From assembly GCA_964428135.1 (NCBI GenBank), contig CAYRXD010000003.1, positions 1-36,475 of the forward strand: 36,475 bases of DNA. The letters run 5' to 3'. How positions within the stretch are numbered: position 1 is the stretch's first letter; the number at the start of each line of letters is the position of its first letter. The stretch is from an uncultured Candidatus Saccharibacteria bacterium (GTDB lineage Bacteria; Patescibacteriota; Minisyncoccia; Phycocordibacterales; CAIJYI01). This document shows positions 3,133 to 31,016 of the stretch, piece after piece. Made by a program: the position numbers and the translations under genes. The notes under the pieces were generated by a model, which was not told where the DNA came from, made no database searches, and saw nothing but the letters and a program-made list of their open reading frames with translations.

Positions 3133-3223
3133 AAAGTCGAAAGTCTATAAAGTCCGTAAAGTCAAAAGTCACGACGGCGTCGGCGTACTTTATAGACTTT
3201 AAGGACTTTTGACTTTATGGACT
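3133..3223. repeat. Segmented inverted repeat built from AAAGTC / GACTTT words; cargo-less hairpin, probable bidirectional terminator
   Basis: Left arm: aaagtcgaaagtctataaagtccgtaaagtcaaaagtcacgacg. Right arm: cgtactttatagactttaaggacttttgactttatggact. By hand the words pair in helices of about 5+7+7+6+4 bp separated by small internal loops. The element is flanked by an A run (3131-3135) and a T run (3225-3229). It lies between convergent genes, and the right arm supplies the last codons and stop of the AsnB-like gene. Confidence 0.75.
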
Positions 3224-4972
3224 ATTTTTCCTCGTTTCAAGCCACAGCTCCAAACACAAAAGCATCCAAATTTTGTAGGATTGGAATCCATGTTTGTTTG
3301 CTTGGAAGTCGTGAAGTATTTTTCGAATTTCTTTTTCGTCGAGTATTCCATAGATGCGAGCTTCTTTTTTCAGAAGCTTTTCATCAATAAAATTTTGTAC
3401 CTCCGGCAACCTCAGCCATTCTTCGACCGGTGCGCCGAAACCCTGTTTTTTTCGGTGTACGAAATCCTGCGGCATAAATTCGCCTAACAAGTCTTTTAAA
3501 ATTTTTTTCCCTATTTTATATTCTTCGGGTAAATTGAATACGAACTCGGCAAGCTGATAATCGAGAAAAGGAGAACGCACTTCGAGCGAATGCATCATGG
3601 ACATGCTATCCGCTTTTAAGAGAAGCTGTCCGGGGAGATAGGTAGCGAGGTCAAAGAGATTTATTTTTTCAATCGGGTTGAGTTTACTTGCCGTCAAGCT
3701 GTCGGGAATGAATCCATTGATATGATTTTCCTTTCCCCATAATTTTTTTCTCTCCTTTTCGCTGAAAACGGAAATAGTCCGGATGTATCCTTGAAAAGCG
3801 TTAAGAAAGATTTTTTCAAACGTATGCGCCTTATACGATAAGTGCTTATGTCTCGTATACCAGCCATAGCCCATAAAGAGCTCATCTGCGCCATCGCCGG
3901 AGAGCGCGACTTTTACTTTGCTTGCGGTAAATTGCGCCAGAAGAGCGTGCGGAAAATCGGAAGAGTCGGCGTGCGGTTGGTCAAAATAGGACAGTACCTC
4001 TCTAAGCTCTTCGATAAGGTTTTCGTTCGCTTGAAGCGTATAATGGTCGGTACCTACTTCTTCAGCGGCTTGTTTTGCGTAGGGGAGTTCGCTTCGGAGA
4101 TCGCCGTATCCGAGTGAAAAGGTTTTAATTGGCTTTTGTAAAAACCTTTGCGCATAAGCCGTAACGAGTGTCGAGTCAACTCCGCCGGAAAGGAATGAAC
4201 CTATTTCCACATCCGCAATCATTCTTTTTTTGACGGCTTCGGTAAAGAGCCGGCGCACTTCTTCTTTTGCGTCATTGTAGGAAATGGTGATGGGGGAATA
4301 TTTGAGTTCCCAATATTTCTTTTTTGAAAGTTCGCCATTCTGATACGTAGCGCTTTCTGCAGGTGCAAGTGTAAATATGTTTTTGTAGACGGTCTTCGTC
4401 GGCGGAATATACATCAGGGCGAGATAATTATCCATTGCTTCCATATCCAGAACGCCTGTTACTTTTCCGGAAGCTAATACCGCCTTTATCTCCGATGCAA
4501 AAATAAAATTTTTTTCATCGTCGAATGCATAATAGAACGGTTTCTTCCCAAAACGGTCGCGCGCCACGAAAAGCGCATTTTTTTTATTATCCCAGATAGC
4601 GAATGCGAACATGCCGTCAAGATATTTCGGGCACTCCTCGCCGTATTCCGCGTATGCCTTCAAAATAACTTCGGTATCAGAGTTGGTAGAAAATTTGTGT
4701 CCTTTTTGTTGGAGCGAGGCTTTCAGTTCAAGGTAATTATATATCTCACCGTTGAAAGTAATGGCATAGTTGCGCGCATTGTCCTTCATTGGCTGGTGTC
4801 CGCTTGAAAGGTCAATAATTGAGAGTCGTGTTTGCCCAAAGATACATCGAGGAAAAGCGAGTGTCCCTTTTTCGTCGGGTCCGCGCTTTGCGAGACTCGC
4901 GAGCGCCAAATCAACCCCATTTTTTTTGTAGGGTTCAAGTGAATTTCCAACAATTCCAAAGATGCCGCACAT
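3215..4972 (-). CDS. Asparagine synthase (glutamine-hydrolysing) family amidotransferase, glycan-cluster type (WbpS/AsnB-like)
   Basis: 585 aa. N-terminal MCGIFGIVG (Ntn Cys2). SGGVDS PP-loop motif (FLSGGVDSTLV). Typical AsnB length and order. Confidence 0.85.
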   Translation of the reverse strand: MCGIFGIVGNSLEPYKKNGVDLALASLAKRGPDEKGTLAFPRCIFGQTRLSIIDLSSGHQPMKDNARNYAITFNGEIYNYLELKASLQQKGHKFSTNSDTEVILKAYAEYGEECPKYLDGMFAFAIWDNKKNALFVARDRFGKKPFYYAFDDEKNFIFASEIKAVLASGKVTGVLDMEAMDNYLALMYIPPTKTVYKNIFTLAPAESATYQNGELSKKKYWELKYSPITISYNDAKEEVRRLFTEAVKKRMIADVEIGSFLSGGVDSTLVTAYAQRFLQKPIKTFSLGYGDLRSELPYAKQAAEEVGTDHYTLQANENLIEELREVLSYFDQPHADSSDFPHALLAQFTASKVKVALSGDGADELFMGYGWYTRHKHLSYKAHTFEKIFLNAFQGYIRTISVFSEKERKKLWGKENHINGFIPDSLTASKLNPIEKINLFDLATYLPGQLLLKADSMSMMHSLEVRSPFLDYQLAEFVFNLPEEYKIGKKILKDLLGEFMPQDFVHRKKQGFGAPVEEWLRLPEVQNFIDEKLLKKEARIYGILDEKEIRKILHDFQANKHGFQSYKIWMLLCLELWLETRKNSP

Positions 4973-4985
4973 GTGAGTTTATCAA

Positions 4986-5013
4986 GTTGTAAAGTTCATA
5001 AAGTTCGACGGCG
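4986..5013. repeat. Degenerate left-arm copy of the AAAGTC word repeat (AAAGTTC variant)
   Basis: gttgtaaagttcataaagttcgacggcg shares the ...aaagt(t)c..cgacggcgt end with the left arm at 3155-3180. It lies just downstream of the MazF-like gene. Confidence 0.45.
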
Positions 5014-5043
5014 TTCTTGCATCCGTTATTTTTCTTAGGCGTC

Positions 5044-5391
5044 TTAATCCGTGACGTATTTTACATATTCAAGCTGAATGCGATTTATTTCGTTTTGGTC
5101 TAAATGTCCTATTTTTTTCTGCAACAAACTCATATCTGCCGCGAATGATTGGGCAAGGAGAACAAATGATGTCATGGTCAGGCCGTTGTCTGTCGTCGGC
5201 AAAACTTCCACTACGTATTTCTGGTGAAGTTTCTTTTTTGAGGTGCAAGGAGCAACAGTGACTGTTTCGCCGGTCACTTGGGTTACTATGACGTGCGGGC
5301 GTATCCCATTTTGGATATGACCGATCGCATTCGTATTTTCGACAAGCCAGACGTCTCCCTTCTTTATTTTTTTATGTACGATGTTTTGCAT
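5044..5391 (-). CDS. Type II toxin, PemK/MazF family
   Basis: KKGDVWLVENTNAIGHIQNGIRPHVIVTQ...TVAPCTSKKK...LLAQSFAADMSLLQKKIGHLDQNEINRI matches the MazF/PemK layout (GD-W-V, G-x-RP-V-V, P-x-TS, Q...D..L..KIG.L). The first ATG is at 5391. The ORF-track start at 5418 is a TTG. Confidence 0.75.
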   Translation of the reverse strand: MQNIVHKKIKKGDVWLVENTNAIGHIQNGIRPHVIVTQVTGETVTVAPCTSKKKLHQKYVVEVLPTTDNGLTMTSFVLLAQSFAADMSLLQKKIGHLDQNEINRIQLEYVKYVTD

Positions 5392-5500
5392 GGAGAATAG
5401 CTTGCTGTTCCAAGGCAATTTGTTGCCAAAATTTAGACTCCGTCATGGTTTTACTAGGGTGTTTTTTTTGGAAAAGTGAATTTTTCTTTGCGGTTTTCAT
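5372..5500 (-). CDS. 42-codon ORF upstream of and overlapping the MazF-like gene; candidate (atypically short) antitoxin
   Basis: My translation is MKTAKKNSLFQKKHPSKTMTESKFWQQIALEQQAILHAKHRT. The ORF is absent from the supplied track (under 60 aa). It overlaps the toxin start by 20 nt, and a near-consensus promoter ends 6 nt before its ATG. I recognise no antitoxin family. Confidence 0.35.
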   Translation of the reverse strand: MKTAKKNSLFQKKHPSKTMTESKFWQQIALEQQAILHAKHRT

Positions 5501-5506
5501 GCCTTT

Positions 5507-5535
5507 ATTATATACCAAAAACTTTATATTGGCAA
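5507..5535 (-). promoter_or_regulatory. Near-consensus sigma70 promoter of the toxin module, leaderless architecture
   Basis: Minus strand reads TTGCCA (5535-5530), 17-nt spacer, TATAAT (5512-5507), then 6 nt (aaaggc) to ATG 5500. Confidence 0.6.
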
Positions 5536-5547
5536 ACTAAAAAACGA

Positions 5548-5580
5548 GGGACTTTATTTATAGACTTTAAGGACTTATAT
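5548..5580. repeat. Right-arm copy of the AAAGTC/GACTTT word repeat
   Basis: gggactttatttatagactttaaggacttatat. Its terminal ggacttatat is identical to 10947-10956. In both places it contains the stop codon of the upstream minus-strand gene (fucosyltransferase here, wzm there). Confidence 0.6.
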
Positions 5581-6450
5581 TCGTACCCACCCTTCTGCTA
5601 AAACATCCTCGGAGCTTGTCGTTTTTTTCTTCGGATTATTGAACCATCGTGTCGGACCGATGACGATTTTATTCGGATTTTGTGAGAGCCATGCGCCCCA
5701 CCATGAGAATGTGCTGTTCGCGATGATATGATGCTTGCATAAGCTCATCAGGCGCAAGTCTTCATAATTTTTGTCGGCGCCGTTGTGGTCGACGTATGTG
5801 GTGGGTACGCCGAGTTTGATGTTTTCTTTCACCCACGCATGGTCATCGGAGAAAACAAATACATGAGGATTGGAAACTTTTTCAAGAATTAATCCAATGG
5901 CTTTTTTGTAGTAATTCAATCCTTGGGTGCCGAAATAGTCATTTGATACCGGATCGCTGACGTAGTCGCCGCGGCGTATGTGCATCATGACAGAGTTTGT
6001 CGCTAGTATTTTATCGGCAACTTCTTTGTCTTTTCCGGAGAGGGGAGTTTTTACGACGATCTCTTTTCTAAGAATATCCGCGATGTCTTTAAAGTACTTT
6101 TCAGTCTGCCAATCACCGTCGAGGTAGACATTATTTCCCGTTCGTAAGATGCGCGGATCGAAGTGAAATTGCCTCTGCTGTATGTATTTTCGTTCCGCGA
6201 TAAGCTTATTAAAGATGTACCACTTTCTTCCTGGCTTTCTTTTTAATTTTTTAAATCGCGCCACTTCTTCTTTTGTCGCAAAATTTTCGACGATGTTAAA
6301 ATGACTCAAGCTGTAGGCATGAAGCTTGTATTCTTCAAAGCCCGTGATATCGAGCTTCAATTCCGTATGATGTATTTCGGCAAGATGCCGCCCAAGCGCG
6401 TATTGAAAGAGTTGGTTTCCCAAGCCCCCGATAAGTTTAACGATTATCAT
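5575..6450 (-). CDS. Alpha-1,2-fucosyltransferase (glycosyltransferase family 11)
   Basis: 291 aa. MIIVKLIGGLGNQLFQYALGRHLA, HIRRGDY and ANSTFSWWGAWL are GT11 hallmarks. ATGA overlap with the upstream gene. Confidence 0.85.
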   Translation of the reverse strand: MIIVKLIGGLGNQLFQYALGRHLAEIHHTELKLDITGFEEYKLHAYSLSHFNIVENFATKEEVARFKKLKRKPGRKWYIFNKLIAERKYIQQRQFHFDPRILRTGNNVYLDGDWQTEKYFKDIADILRKEIVVKTPLSGKDKEVADKILATNSVMMHIRRGDYVSDPVSNDYFGTQGLNYYKKAIGLILEKVSNPHVFVFSDDHAWVKENIKLGVPTTYVDHNGADKNYEDLRLMSLCKHHIIANSTFSWWGAWLSQNPNKIVIGPTRWFNNPKKKTTSSEDVLAEGWVRI

Positions 6451-9226: not shown

Positions 9227-10489
9227 TTAATAATGTTCCCACTTCAAACGTGGGCGCACAACTCCCGGAATTCTCCGGTTGAAATCTGATTGTCGAGCGT
9301 TTTCTATATCCTCGGCAACCGTAAAAGTAATTGCATCTTGTTTGTAAAAATGGATGCGCAAGGGACGCATACTTGAGAGAGCAATTCCTGCAACATAGGT
9401 TGTGTCATTAAGTAAATCTTCAGGAATCCACATGATGGACGTGTGTTCTCCAACTGTACCGAGTTTTTCATCAAATTCAGCGTGGTTTATAAAAGCAGTT
9501 TCTCCTCGCATGGTAAAAATATGGATATTTGGAATCGGAATGTAGCCTTCTTTGAGAATCTCATACGTAAATTCGACACCGATTTTTTTGTTTGCAGTAA
9601 TGAATGATATGGCATTTTTATTTTCATCTACAATCTTAGCAGAATGAAGTACGGCCACATCATCACCAAAATGTTCTAACTCAAAATTTGCTTCGGAACT
9701 GCGGGATTTAACATCGTTTAAATAAGTGTTAATTACGTCTTCTGTATTCCCAAACATTTTCACCTTTCCTTTCTCAAGTAAAATCGTCTTCGGACAGAGT
9801 TGTTGTATCGCGGACATATTGTGACTTACGAAAAGAATCGTGCGGCCTTTGCCGTGGGTGACTTCTTCCATTTTGCCGAGGCACTTTTTTTGGAATTCAG
9901 CATCACCGACGGCGAGAACTTCGTCTACCAGGAGAATGTCCGGCTCCATGTGGGCGGCGACGGAGAAGGCGAGGCGGACGTACATGCCGCTTGAATAGTA
10001 TTTCACTGGGGTATCAAGAAATTTTTCGATGCCGGAGAAGGCGACTATTTCGTCAAATTTCGAGGCTATTTCTTTTTTCGTCATACCAAGAATAGCGCCG
10101 TTCAAGAAAATATTTTCACGTCCGGTGAGCTCTGGGTGGAAGCCGGTGCCGACTTCAAGGAGGGAGGCGGCTTTGCCGTGCATGATAATCTCGCCTTCCG
10201 TTGGCGGGGTGATACCCGTAAGGATTTTTAAGAGCGTACTTTTCCCTGCACCGTTTTGTCCGATGATGCCTACTACCTCGCCCTGGTTTATGGAAACGCT
10301 CACGTCTTTCAGTGCCCAGAATTCTTCCTTTGTGCCGATGCCAGCCACGCTTTTCGCTTTCGCTTTGAGAAATCGAAAGGGGCTTTTGAGAATATTCGTC
10401 AGTACATCACGCAATGCAATATAACCGCCACGTTGATGAGTGATGTTGTACTTCTTTCCAATATTTTTTATGGTTATTATGGGGGGCAT
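9227..10489 (-). CDS. wzt: Polysaccharide ABC exporter ATP-binding protein Wzt/TagH type with ~170-aa C-terminal extension (Wzt_C-like carbohydrate-binding domain)
   Basis: 420 aa. Walker A GQNGAGKSTLLK, signature YSSGMYVRLAF, Walker B ILLVDEVLAVGD. The region after about residue 250 is beta-rich and non-NBD. Confidence 0.85.
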   Translation of the reverse strand: MPPIITIKNIGKKYNITHQRGGYIALRDVLTNILKSPFRFLKAKAKSVAGIGTKEEFWALKDVSVSINQGEVVGIIGQNGAGKSTLLKILTGITPPTEGEIIMHGKAASLLEVGTGFHPELTGRENIFLNGAILGMTKKEIASKFDEIVAFSGIEKFLDTPVKYYSSGMYVRLAFSVAAHMEPDILLVDEVLAVGDAEFQKKCLGKMEEVTHGKGRTILFVSHNMSAIQQLCPKTILLEKGKVKMFGNTEDVINTYLNDVKSRSSEANFELEHFGDDVAVLHSAKIVDENKNAISFITANKKIGVEFTYEILKEGYIPIPNIHIFTMRGETAFINHAEFDEKLGTVGEHTSIMWIPEDLLNDTTYVAGIALSSMRPLRIHFYKQDAITFTVAEDIENARQSDFNRRIPGVVRPRLKWEHY

Positions 10490-10490
10490 A

Positions 10491-10568
10491 AAAAGTCAAA
10501 AGTCCTTAAAGTCTATAAAGTCCGTAAAGTCACGACGATGCCGGACTTTATGGGCTTAATAGACTTTT
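10491..10568. repeat. AAAGTC word-repeat hairpin (left arm plus short right arm) between wzt and the four-helix-bundle gene
   Basis: aaaagtcaaaagtccttaaagtctataaagtccgtaaagtcacgacg, then atgcc, then ggactttatgggcttaatagactttt. It shares a 25-nt identity (aaagtctataaagtccgtaaagtca) with 3143-3167. The right part encodes the C-terminus (IKSLLSP*) of the four-helix-bundle protein. Confidence 0.75.
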
Positions 10569-10901
10569 AATCAATCCTGAAAGCAGCCTTGAAATTTCAG
10601 TGGATAAGGCGTAATACTTCGTATACTGTTCTTTCGTTACGTACCCAAGGCTTAAGGCTAAATATAGCATTGATCTCACTTCTCCGCACGAACCTTTGGC
10701 TATGAATAAGAAATGTTTAAATTCTTTATCGCCCCTTCTTTCGAAGCCTTCGGCAATGTTATTCATGATTGATACTGACGCTCGCTGTATTTGGTCTCTA
10801 AATCCAAAGTCTTTGCTACTCCTGAATGTTTTATAAATAAACAAAGTTAATTCGTTTGCTTTCTGCCAAGCGACAATATCTTCAAATGTATCTATTTTCA
10901 T
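10548..10901 (-). CDS. Four-helix-bundle protein (23S rRNA intervening-sequence protein / Avd family, PF05635-like)
   Basis: FEDIVAWQKANELTLFIYKTF...FGFRDQIQRASVSIMNNIAEGFERRGDKEFKHFLFIAKGSCGEVRSMLYLA is the classic family signature. The likely start is MKIDTF at 10901 (or ATG 10910). The longer track ORF reads into the repeat. Confidence 0.85.
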   Translation of the reverse strand: MKIDTFEDIVAWQKANELTLFIYKTFRSSKDFGFRDQIQRASVSIMNNIAEGFERRGDKEFKHFLFIAKGSCGEVRSMLYLALSLGYVTKEQYTKYYALSTEISRLLSGLIKSLLSP

Positions 10902-10910
10902 AACGGTCAT

Positions 10911-10956
10911 CGTGACTTTAAGGACTTTATAGACTTTCGACTTTATGGACTTATAT
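10911..10956. repeat. Right-arm AAAGTC/GACTTT word repeat; inverted partner of 10508-10534
   Basis: cgtgactttaaggactttatagacttt (10911-10937) is complementary to aaagtctataaagtccgtaaagtcacg (10508-10534) at 26 of 27 positions. It ends in ggacttatat, which contains the wzm stop codon. Confidence 0.8.
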
Positions 10957-11769
10957 AATATCCGCAAAGTACCGCTCCACCTTTTTAAAATATATCACCC
11001 CGATAATGAGAAGTACGGCACAGGCGGCTAAGGAATCCGCCATGAGTACCCAGTTTATCTTTGTGGCGCCAAGAAGGGCGGCGCGGGCGGTTTGAATAAC
11101 GCCCATCATGGGATTAAAGGCGAGCATCCACGAATATTTTCCAGCGATGCTTGCCGGATAGATGACGGGTGTGAGGAAAAGGAGAATCTGAATGAAGTAA
11201 GGAAGCACGAAACGCACGTCGCGGTATTTCACGTTTATTGCTGCAAGGAAAAGTCCGCCACCGACGGCCGCCATGAAGGTGATGATGAGGAGCACCGGAA
11301 GAATCAGAAGTCCTGTGAGGTGAGGAGTGTAGCCGTAATAGACCATCATTCCGACGAGGATGACTGATGAGATGGCGAAGTCAACAAATTTGGTAGCGAC
11401 GGCCGAGAGAGGAAGAATGAGCCGCGGGAAATACACTTTCGTAATAATGGCTTGGTTACTGATGAGCGTGCCGCTTGTTTCAGAGAGGGCGGTAGAAAAA
11501 AATTGCCAGAAGAGAAGTCCGGTGTAGACAAAAATTGGATAAGGGATTCCGTCGGAAGGAACGTTGAGAAGTTTTCCAAAAAAGAGACTGAAAACCACCA
11601 TGGTCATGAACGGCTGAAAAACTGCCCAAAGGACTCCAATGAGGGTTTGTTTGTATCGCACTTTAAAATCTCGCCACGTAAAAAAATACAAAAGTTCTTT
11701 GTAAGCCCAGATTTCACGCATATCGTCCCAGCTGAGGACTTTTTTTGGACGGATAACTGTTGTTTTCAT
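10951..11769 (-). CDS. wzm: Polysaccharide ABC exporter permease (ABC-2 type)
   Basis: YKELLYFFTWRDFKVRYKQTLIGVLWAVFQPF plus 6 predicted TM segments. The first ATG is at 11769 (MKTTVIRPKK). The track start at 11787 is a TTG. Confidence 0.85.
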   Translation of the reverse strand: MKTTVIRPKKVLSWDDMREIWAYKELLYFFTWRDFKVRYKQTLIGVLWAVFQPFMTMVVFSLFFGKLLNVPSDGIPYPIFVYTGLLFWQFFSTALSETSGTLISNQAIITKVYFPRLILPLSAVATKFVDFAISSVILVGMMVYYGYTPHLTGLLILPVLLIITFMAAVGGGLFLAAINVKYRDVRFVLPYFIQILLFLTPVIYPASIAGKYSWMLAFNPMMGVIQTARAALLGATKINWVLMADSLAACAVLLIIGVIYFKKVERYFADII

Positions 11770-11775
11770 TATAAA

Positions 11776-11781
11776 ATGATA
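11776..11781 (-). promoter_or_regulatory. Candidate -10 box 6 nt upstream of the wzm ATG
   Basis: Minus strand reads TATCAT, tttata, ATG(11769). I found no clear -35. Confidence 0.3.
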
Positions 11782-11796
11782 TGCCAATATACAAAT

Positions 11797-30950: not shown

Positions 30951-31016
30951 CCAAAACTCAAAATAGCAAATTCTAGCATATGCTAGAATTTGCTATTTTG
31001 AGTTTTGGCTTTTTAT
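30951..31016 (+). terminator. Perfect 58-bp palindrome followed by a T run (terminator of manC)
   Basis: ccaaaactcaaaatagcaaattctagcat | atgctagaatttgctattttgagttttgg spans 30951-31008 with 29-bp arms and no mismatch. cttttt follows. Confidence 0.7.

Follow-up and report, generated by a model that had tools for sequence, protein, structure and literature searches.

A MazF-family toxin module between the decayed arms of a putative intervening-sequence-type hairpin in a glycan operon of a Candidatus Saccharibacteria bacterium

When a toxin gene is found inside an operon and between inverted repeats, do the repeats mobilize it, or did the gene and the repeats meet in some other way? The question arises from a stretch of 36,475 nucleotides (nt) of an uncultured Candidatus Saccharibacteria bacterium (GenBank assembly GCA_964428135.1, contig CAYRXD010000003.1, positions 1 to 36,475; the window hereafter), which carries a minus-strand string of glycan genes. 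In this string, a MazF/PemK toxin gene lies between inverted arms of AAAGTC units at the junction of a GT11 fucosyltransferase gene and an asnB-type amidotransferase gene. A preliminary description, made from the letters alone, had noted that two small genes of one operon, those of the toxin and of a four-helix-bundle protein at the wzm/wzt junction, each sit between inverted arms of one repeat family, and this observation holds. It had also proposed that the repeats define an insertion or exchange site and act as a cassette system. The present analysis bears out only part of that proposal: the GT11/asnB junction is a hotspot of insertion and exchange, but the repeats are not the recombination sites of a cassette system. 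Instead, the two arms are probably the split halves of one hairpin of the rRNA intervening sequence (IVS) type, in whose loop, or in place of whose loop gene, an autonomous MazF toxin-antitoxin (TA) module landed. Positions are those of the window, and arms and open reading frames (ORFs) are read in mRNA sense; the labels C, G, and L denote contigs of the source genome (1.39 Mb, 122 contigs, 97% complete), congener genomes, and compared loci, respectively. The features are listed in Table 1.

The sequence between GT11 and asnB is an addition to a junction that is tight in most relatives. Across the six congeners, the junction is not conserved and the glycan genes are only 33 to 46% identical; metagenomic loci were used instead. 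Among 32 such loci with relatives of AsnB, GT11 lies directly upstream in 21, and the spacer is 1 to 16 nt long in 16 of these. The GT11 protein of the window ends in ...GWVRI*, its stop codon (5575-5577) being the last triplet ahead of the repeat, and its relatives likewise end in W[IV][KR][ILM]*, so that the stop is native and all sequence after it was added. The short spacers identify the toxin module as an insertion into what, judged from the relatives, was an ancestrally tight junction. The insert lies, as had been described, between two minus-strand genes of the wzm/wzt string, but it measures 602 nt (4973-5574, from the GT11 stop to the asnB ATG at 4972-4970) rather than ~560 nt. Its order is upstream arm, 13-nt filler, 493-nt MazF module, 29-nt filler, and loop remnant with degenerate arm. 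The 13-nt filler, CCTCGTTTTTTAG (5537-5549), is made up of the last five letters counted with the upstream arm, CCTCG, and 8 nt (5537-5544) for which no homology to orthologous modules or to canonical hairpins was found. Both fillers were considered as remnants of the four-helix-bundle gene of this repeat family and are too short to tell. The comparison of base composition that had been suggested was uninformative: GC content is 39.6% in the TA module, 42.0% in mazF (0.47 at third codon positions), and 43% in the neighboring genes, all inside the 36 to 46% range of the operon itself.

Both ends of the insert carry arms of the repeat family. The arm on the GT11 side, described in GACTTT orientation at 5548-5580, was confirmed at 5545-5577 with three units (GACTTT at 5550, GACTTT at 5563, and GACTTA at 5572); 20 nt of it (5557-5576) are the 100% complement of positions 10500-10519 in an arm of the four-helix-bundle cassette, and the window holds 13 occurrences of AAAGTCnnnAAAGTC with at most one mismatch, where 0.31 would be expected. 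The arm on the asnB side (4977-5014) is degenerate, with two AAAGTTC units, and holds the family loop motif CGACGGCGT. A profile built from eight canonical hairpins elsewhere in the genome, none of them from the toxin locus, recovers known copies at E values of ~1e-10 to 1e-22; in a search space of 2.8 Mb, it matches 5014-4988 (loop end and arm; genome-wide E = 0.023) and 5546-5576 (E = 0.12), both exactly at the ends of the insert and in opposite orientation. The left arm also matches the hairpin on C14 (82.5% over 40 nt by blastn) and L001. As had been claimed, the arms share their polarity with the four-helix-bundle cassette: the AAAGTC type has the low coordinate and the GACTTT type the high one, and the cargo is encoded on the minus strand. 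It is highly improbable that the similarity at 4986-5013 arose by chance and that only the arm at 5548-5580 is real. A generic repeat finder does leave the two arms unpaired, and the energy of their duplex is not significant; the profile match, however, falls inside a 71-nt spacer out of 2.8 Mb searched, the loop motif and the sequence after the arm recur in a related locus discussed below (L055), and the AACTTGATAAACT/AAAGTTC variant of the left arm recurs in elements of G005 with 87% identity over 31 nt.

That related locus may show how the junction looked before the toxin arrived. L055 is the metagenomic locus with the closest AsnB (86% identity; GT11, 78%), and it carries a complete, ORF-less AAAGTC hairpin directly 3' of the GT11 stop and no MazF module. 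When the flanks of the insert are joined, they are colinear with L055 through the 3' end of GT11, the upstream arm, the loop ACGCCGTCG, and the downstream arm, and onward into the sequence after the arm (CAACT..ATA..CACAT). This colinearity argues that the hairpin preceded the module, and the absence of inner arm halves on both sides of the module argues for a hairpin that was split and not for two that decayed. A single hairpin split at the boundary of arm and loop thus appears to be the most economical history. In L203 (GT11, 87%), an AAAGTC arm likewise begins at the GT11 stop codon, after which the contig ends.

The repeat family itself can be classed as an IVS-type element, since copies lie inside rRNA genes of other Patescibacteria. 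AAAGTC hairpins were found in a 16S gene (L083:3135-3215) and in a 23S gene (L081:~3615-3715), L083 and L081 being a Magasanikbacteria and a Roizmanbacteria metagenome-assembled genome; together with their rRNA context, these copies fold at approximately -63 to -80 kcal/mol. Intervening sequences of rRNA with an S23p/23S_rRNA_IVP ORF (IVP below) are known from Leptospira, Coxiella, and Salmonella, and these sequences and their four-helix-bundle ORF have been a puzzle since the early 1990s. In the source genome, the family occupies ~14 intergenic loci, ~12 of which hold no gene; a three-unit pattern yields 17 matches in the 1.39 Mb and none with the reversed control. Single copies span 70 to 110 nt and consist of an arm of two to five 9-nt AAAGTCnnn units, a loop such as ACGACGGCGTCG, and a mirror arm. 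They often begin in or just past a TAA or TAG stop and end a few nucleotides before the next ATG, and canonical copies have fold energies of -25 to -37 kcal/mol. The IVS stem is cut by RNase III (PMC4990558; PMC11270868), and both IVP ORFs and short ORF-less insertions have been reported in rRNA genes of the Candidate Phyla Radiation (CPR) (PMC11270868).

The four-helix-bundle protein of the wzm/wzt cassette belongs to this IVP family (PF05635), and its relatives tie the gene to the arms. We compiled 22 PF05635 genes from the source genome, four congeners, one genome of another family in the order, metagenomic loci, and three Bacteroidota. Inverted arms of short periodic units flank each of the 20 full-length genes (among them window 10488-10953, C44:171-616, C119:1313-1754, L185-L195, L002, L028, L097, and L116); a truncated gene (L137) is also armed, and for a copy at a contig end (L164), only the 3' side was available for the check. 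The unit of the arms differs between IVP copies (AAAGTCnnn, GAACAnnn, GTATCAG, TTAGGT, AATAGA, TTAAATGG, GTAGGT, and TAGTAG). The proteins with AAAGTC arms form one clade, with 99/99 support, that spans Patescibacteria and Bacteroidota; they are 59 to 75% identical to the window protein, compared with 20 to 45% for proteins whose arms are of other kinds, members of the same genus included. The arm motif thus tracks the IVP clade, which suggests that arms and IVP gene travel together. In the gene-bearing AAAGTC copies of the window (10548-10901), L028, L002, L097, and L116, the PF05635 ORF lies in the loop, and in the toxin-bearing copy the loop holds the MazF module and no such ORF. The family resembles rRNA IVSs in being made up of hairpin elements closed by terminal inverted repeats, some copies of which carry a PF05635 ORF in the loop; the toxin-bearing copy differs in lying between protein-coding genes of a glycan operon, in its decayed stem, and in carrying a promoter-bearing MazF module instead of, or without, the IVP gene. 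The bare 24-nt repeat pattern proved unspecific as a marker of IVP genes: among 120 genome loci with the pattern, an IVP gene lies no more than 150 nt away in only 3, and hairpins account for 12, and the pattern also matches tandem repeats in one orientation, some of them coding. Among 117 viral contigs with the pattern, inspected as possible phage vehicles, none had it in hairpin form and none beside an IVP gene. Elsewhere, arms of the family expand to 6 to 17 perfect tandem 9-nt units (L005:3412-3462 in G001; L007:3404-3454 in G005; 16 to 17 units in L089), which indicates that copy number changes by slippage or unequal exchange. A lone AAAGTC-type arm (C49:4891-4922) has a terminator on one side and a tRNA gene on the other, with a gene for a 313-aa tyrosine recombinase nearby (5317-6258).

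The module between the arms looks like a TA system complete in itself. The near-consensus promoter TTGCCA-17-TATAAT, the 42-codon ORF, and the MazF/PemK gene were all recovered at or near the places where they had been described. The promoter matches 11 of the 12 consensus positions, and its -35 and -10 positions are kept in the orthologues in G002 and G003 and in the metagenomic copies. The ATG of the 42-codon ORF follows the -10 box by only 6 nt, and so the mRNA is predicted to be leaderless. The toxin is assigned to the MazF/PemK fold by its PF02452 score (Table 1) and by the alignment of residues 9-105 with solved EndoA/MazF structures, in which GIRPHV stands opposite GVRPVL and CTS opposite ITA. 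We take these two segments to hold the catalytic Arg and Thr, the positions of which appear to be retained. Homologues of the toxin number 148, and the best 120 of the 148 are 62 to 92% identical. No Pfam family and no recognizable DNA-binding domain were found for the 42-codon ORF. The ORF is nevertheless kept in seven loci, where its C-terminal motif (E.KFWQQIALEQQAILHAK) is invariant, all indels are in-frame, and the overlap with mazF is constant at ~20 nt; its versions range from 40 to 93 aa (the 93-aa form in one relative) and have only the C-terminal 20 residues in common. Of the short-form loci, five have upstream sequence, and in these a -10 box lies ~6 nt before the ATG (clear in four, weak in L199). 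The conservation in seven loci is good evidence that the small ORF encodes a real short antitoxin and that mazF is not an orphan toxin gene. The module resembles type II MazEF/PemIK systems in its PemK/MazF-fold toxin, the small upstream gene that overlaps the toxin gene, and its own promoter, and differs from them in the antitoxin candidate, which is only 42 aa long and matches no family, and in the predicted leaderless mRNA.

The same module occurs where there are no arms. Orthologous modules adjoin recG in G003 and the RNase R gene in G002 (80% and 75% nucleotide identity; MazF, 82% and 77%; small ORF, 63 to 67%), and four metagenomic contigs carry further copies (MazF, 84 to 92% amino acid identity). 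All six have the promoter and the small ORF, none of the six has AAAGTC arms, and the homology spans precisely the stretch from the -35 box to the stop codon. The module is therefore independent of the arms. Only one of the nine PemK loci in the genome touches an AAAGTC arm, and a general link between PemK genes and these arms was rejected. The modules of G002 and G003 end in terminator hairpins of their own, which the window copy lacks: no minus-strand terminator was found between the module promoter and asnB, nor in the 29-nt filler, and the module promoter thus probably also feeds asnB.

The variety of contents at the GT11/asnB junction makes it a hotspot of insertion and exchange (Table 1). 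Hairpins of two families, AbiE cassettes, an IVP gene, and single arms are found there in different combinations, and the turnover of toxin systems is independent of that of hairpin families. The other occupied junction of the operon, wzm/wzt, follows a similar pattern: it measures 8 nt in L043 and holds the IVP cassette in the window. In L036:1015-1964, inverted arms of ATACGAAT type enclose an insert of 969 nt at this junction, the cargo of which is a gene for a 144-aa PemK-like toxin and one for a 137-aa PDDEXK_3/GxxExxY protein; L033 has the same arms and only a truncated start of the PDDEXK_3 gene, with no toxin gene. Given the PemK-like gene in this differently armed element, toxin genes appear to have become nested in IVS-type loops at least twice independently. 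In L047, two GT11 paralogues are each followed by an AAAGTC-type arm (2083-2200 and 3969-4003), and a duplicated 5' fragment of asnB (MCGIIAILGNTEQ...) comes after the first GT11 and its arm; this layout indicates a duplication that took in the arm and the start of asnB.

How the module came to lie between the arms can be accounted for in several ways, which the same observations separate to different degrees. In the history that we favor, an AAAGTC hairpin would have colonized the originally tight junction, and the type II MazF TA module would then have landed at the boundary of the upstream arm and the loop of the existing hairpin; alternatively, it would have replaced an IVP gene once present in the loop, and L028, with an IVP cassette at this very junction, provides the state that such a replacement requires. 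It is unlikely that events ran in the reverse order, with the toxin module entering first, two hairpins inserting at its ends, and each of these losing its inner half. Such hairpins do occur at both ends of ordinary genes (nusB on C23, rpsH in L144, and rplW in L095), and an arm was gained or lost beside a resident MazF-like gene at pheS. The ordinary genes are bracketed, however, by two complete hairpins and not by outward-facing half arms, and the reverse order demands two independent deletions of exactly the inner half; moreover, L055, with the closest AsnB, has the hairpin without the module, and the loop remnant ACGCCGTCG is present on one side only. A still less probable course is that homologous recombination in GT11 and asnB swapped the whole content of the junction between strains, as at other glycan loci, hairpins and toxins being passengers. 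Six close relatives (GT11, 78 to 87%) each have a content of their own, hairpins of two families and TA systems of two types are combined in several ways, and the glycan clusters of the genus are hypervariable, with GT11 and AsnB of congeners only 33 to 46% identical. Swapping nevertheless leaves the position of the module exactly between two hairpin halves without an account, as it does the same pattern at wzm/wzt, including the MazF-like gene of L036 in another hairpin family; it is also compatible with a module that landed in a hairpin and does not exclude it.

The cassette proposal, in which the arms would bound a mobile unit of the integron or miniature inverted-repeat transposable element (MITE) kind and move with their cargo by arm-specific recombination, appears about as improbable as such swapping. 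It gains from two different cargo genes that share an operon and an arm family, from the co-inheritance of IVP genes and arm motif in the 99/99 clade, and from the change of cargo at one junction among relatives. Yet the six other copies of the module have no arms, a unit of arms plus MazF was not found elsewhere, the module brings its own promoter, the arms of the toxin-bearing copy are decayed, no integron integrase was found in the genome, and the Y1 transposases of the genome are flanked by other repeats. A search for other cargo between such arms did return a PF05635 gene in one copy of the genome and IVP genes in relatives, but most copies, ~12 of ~14, are empty, and housekeeping genes (nusB, rpsH, and rplW) too have a complete hairpin on either side. 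Several observations also weigh against a module that landed in a preexisting hairpin. No direct target duplication flanks the module and no insertion footprint is visible, and such a landing does not account for the 13-nt and 29-nt fillers. The arms are individually weak matches to the profile (E = 0.023 and 0.12), and their duplex, at -13.6 kcal/mol, is hardly distinguished from shuffled sequences (mean, -9.6 ± 2.8 kcal/mol; 8% as good), compared with -58 kcal/mol for the arms of the IVP cassette. At pheS, an arm stands beside the MazF-like gene in G005 but not in the source genome, which indicates that arms can arrive beside resident toxin genes. Finally, the AbiE cassette seen in L055 adjoins hairpins of two families in relatives; hairpins thus turn over around cargo, and the order of events is blurred. 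The minimum free energy fold of the whole insert still pairs its two arms. Judged by these energies, the stem of the toxin-bearing copy has decayed, and its arms are probably relics.

The locus can be compared with known systems of mobilization. Like integron cassettes, it combines small accessory or selfish genes, TA systems among them, with imperfect palindromic sites and variable cargo. Unlike them, it has no IntI, attI, or attC core, the repeats flank both sides instead of forming a single 3' attC, and the cargo has its own promoter, forms no array, and occurs elsewhere without the repeats. The integron model was rejected since no integron integrase was found in the 97% complete genome: the best match to TIGR02249 reaches 91.9 bits, below the cutoff of 265, and only generic tyrosine recombinases are present. 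With repetitive extragenic palindromic (REP) sequences, REPINs, and MITEs such as the Neisseria Correia elements, which are processed by RNase III, the family shares short intergenic palindromes, dispersed at ~14 loci and cotranscribed with their neighbors, and one gene-bearing copy that has these repeats on its flanks. It differs in that the associated gene encodes a four-helix-bundle protein and not an HUH/Y1 or DDE transposase, and in that the arms are arrays of 9-nt units in variable copy number. No Y1 gene found in the genome is flanked by the AAAGTC family. Two Y1_Tnp genes were confirmed by Pfam (C13:17922-18575 and C69:161-838), and similar ORFs on C66 and C83 were recognized by sequence only; each has REP-like inverted repeats of its own, unrelated to AAAGTC (C13:17871-18613, C69:114-872, C66:52-730, and C83:1331-2253), and the model of a REP-associated tyrosine transposase (RAYT) was rejected because these transposases carry other repeats. 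With the recombinase-free insertions that leave a long target duplication (Nobusato type), the locus shares a TA cassette without mobility genes directly behind a stop codon in a CPR genome; its flanks, however, are inverted hairpin halves, and this model was rejected since no such duplication flanks the module. The outer ends of AAAGTC elements usually abut TA, but this TA belongs to TAA or TAG stops and AT-rich spacers and provides no unambiguous target duplication.

If the module did land in a hairpin, the properties of such hairpins may explain why it was tolerated there. In intact elements, the long stem would be a substrate of RNase III, the gene of which (rnc) is encoded in the genome on C23, and the cargo would be looped out of the polycistronic RNA. 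Hairpin loops would then be tolerated landing sites inside operons, a neutral space that can be excised from the RNA. Long palindromes are break-prone DNA, as established for SbcCD of E. coli, and this property may promote insertion. Once in place, the conserved C-terminal helix of the antitoxin (FWQQIALEQQAILHAK) would neutralize the MazF endoribonuclease; loss of the locus would free the toxin, so that the module would act as an addiction element, a property that may stabilize the locus.

A literature search found no report of toxin cargo in an IVS-type element, the arrangement that this locus appears to show. The element family to which these rRNA intervening sequences belong lives here between protein-coding genes, and its loop can apparently hold a whole putative TA system. 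The relatives form a series at one junction (empty, hairpin, hairpin with IVP, hairpin with MazF, and hairpin beside AbiE), which makes it possible to test how toxin modules without mobility genes enter streamlined genomes, whether palindromes act as landing pads, and whether processing by RNase III insulates insertions from operon expression. In Patescibacteria, how surface-glycan loci are expressed and how stable they are may be influenced by promoters inside operons and by addiction modules. A broader reading, which we regard as rather doubtful, is that IVS-type hairpin loops are general cargo bays in the operons of ultrasmall bacteria, insulated by excision of the stem through RNase III, where selfish genes would accumulate and be exchanged without a dedicated recombinase. 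Candidate occupants would be the IVP four-helix bundle, PDDEXK_3 nucleases, MazF of two lineages, and, adjacent, AbiE, and the repeats of its own arms would be a possible target of the cognate IVP protein. Were this so, the toxin module would be one member of an unrecognized gene-capture platform held in common with rRNA intervening sequences.

Table 1 Features of the window and contents of the GT11/asnB junction in related loci
Locus	Feature	Position	Strand	Remarks
Window	wzm	10951-11787	-	
Window	IVP sister cassette, wzm/wzt junction	10488-10953	-	Arms 10907-10953 and 10488-10538
Window	IVP (PF05635 four-helix-bundle) ORF	10548-10901	-	In wzm/wzt cassette
Window	Extra degenerate arm	10544-10567	-	In wzm/wzt cassette
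Window	wzt	9227-10489	-	
Window	CmcI-type methyltransferase, GT2, DegT-family enzyme		-	Same string, between wzt and GT11
Window	GT11 alpha-1,2-fucosyltransferase gene	5575-6450	-	Pfam PF01531, 118.6 bits
Window	Upstream arm	5545-5577	-	TAAGTC-ctt-AAAGTC-tataaat-AAAGTC-CCTCG; abuts and overlaps GT11 stop codon
Window	Filler between arm and module	5537-5544	-	8 nt, TTTTTTAG
Window	MazF module	5536-5044	-	493 nt; start of homology at 5536 by alignment
Window	Module promoter	5507-5536	-	TTGCCA 5535-5530, 17-nt spacer, TATAAT 5512-5507
Window	Antitoxin-candidate ORF	5372-5500	-	42 codons (MKTAKKNSLFQKKHPSKTMTESKFWQQIALEQQAILHAKHRT); overlaps mazF by ~20 nt
Window	MazF/PemK-family endoribonuclease toxin gene	5044-5391	-	115 aa; PF02452, 58.7 bits (cutoff 23.1)
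Window	Filler 3' of mazF stop	5015-5043	-	29 nt
Window	Downstream arm and loop remnant	4977-5014	-	ACGCCGTCG-GAACTTT-at-GAACTTT-ac-AACTTGATAAACT; ends 4 nt before asnB ATG
Window	asnB-type glutamine-dependent amidotransferase gene	3215-4972	-	PF00733, 287 bits; starts MCGI; downstream of insert
Window	Gene-less complete hairpin of the AAAGTC family	3133-3216		Between convergent stops of 1831-3132 gene and asnB; -36.8 kcal/mol; E = 4e-22
L055	GT11/asnB content			AAAGTC hairpin, then AbiEi/AbiEii
L202	GT11/asnB content			TACGAAT-unit hairpin (a different family) without a gene, -26.8 kcal/mol
L205	GT11/asnB content			TACGAAT hairpin, then AbiE cassette as in L055
L204	GT11/asnB content			AbiE cassette, then TACGAAT arm remnant
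L028	GT11/asnB content			IVP gene in AAAGTC arms
L047	GT11/asnB content			AAAGTC arm only

Other loci in these genomes show palindromes beside genes. The MazF-like gene at pheS (PF02452; C112:2085-2494) lies directly 3' of pheS in the source genome, without an arm and at a place where the contigs break; at the corresponding locus of G005 (L001:3006-4770), an AAAGTC arm and an unrelated hairpin stand ahead of the same gene, and a gene of 301 aa and a degenerate hairpin lie between it and pheT. At C23:17480-18165, a complete hairpin stands on either side of nusB, which lies between rpmF and rnc; these two hairpins belong to yet another periodic family, with ATTCCTGATTCATA units. In the window, a perfect 58-nt palindrome centered on TCTAGCATATGCTAGA occupies 30951-31008. 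Pairs of this palindrome family, spaced 720 to 820 nt apart, bracket genes for ~230-aa PaaX_M (Cas2-like) proteins at C8:16001-16897, C10:4040-4898, C1:44457-45256, C51:1719-2581, and C1:7113-7945, and the TCTAGCATATGCTAGA palindrome may represent an operator or a family of small elements.

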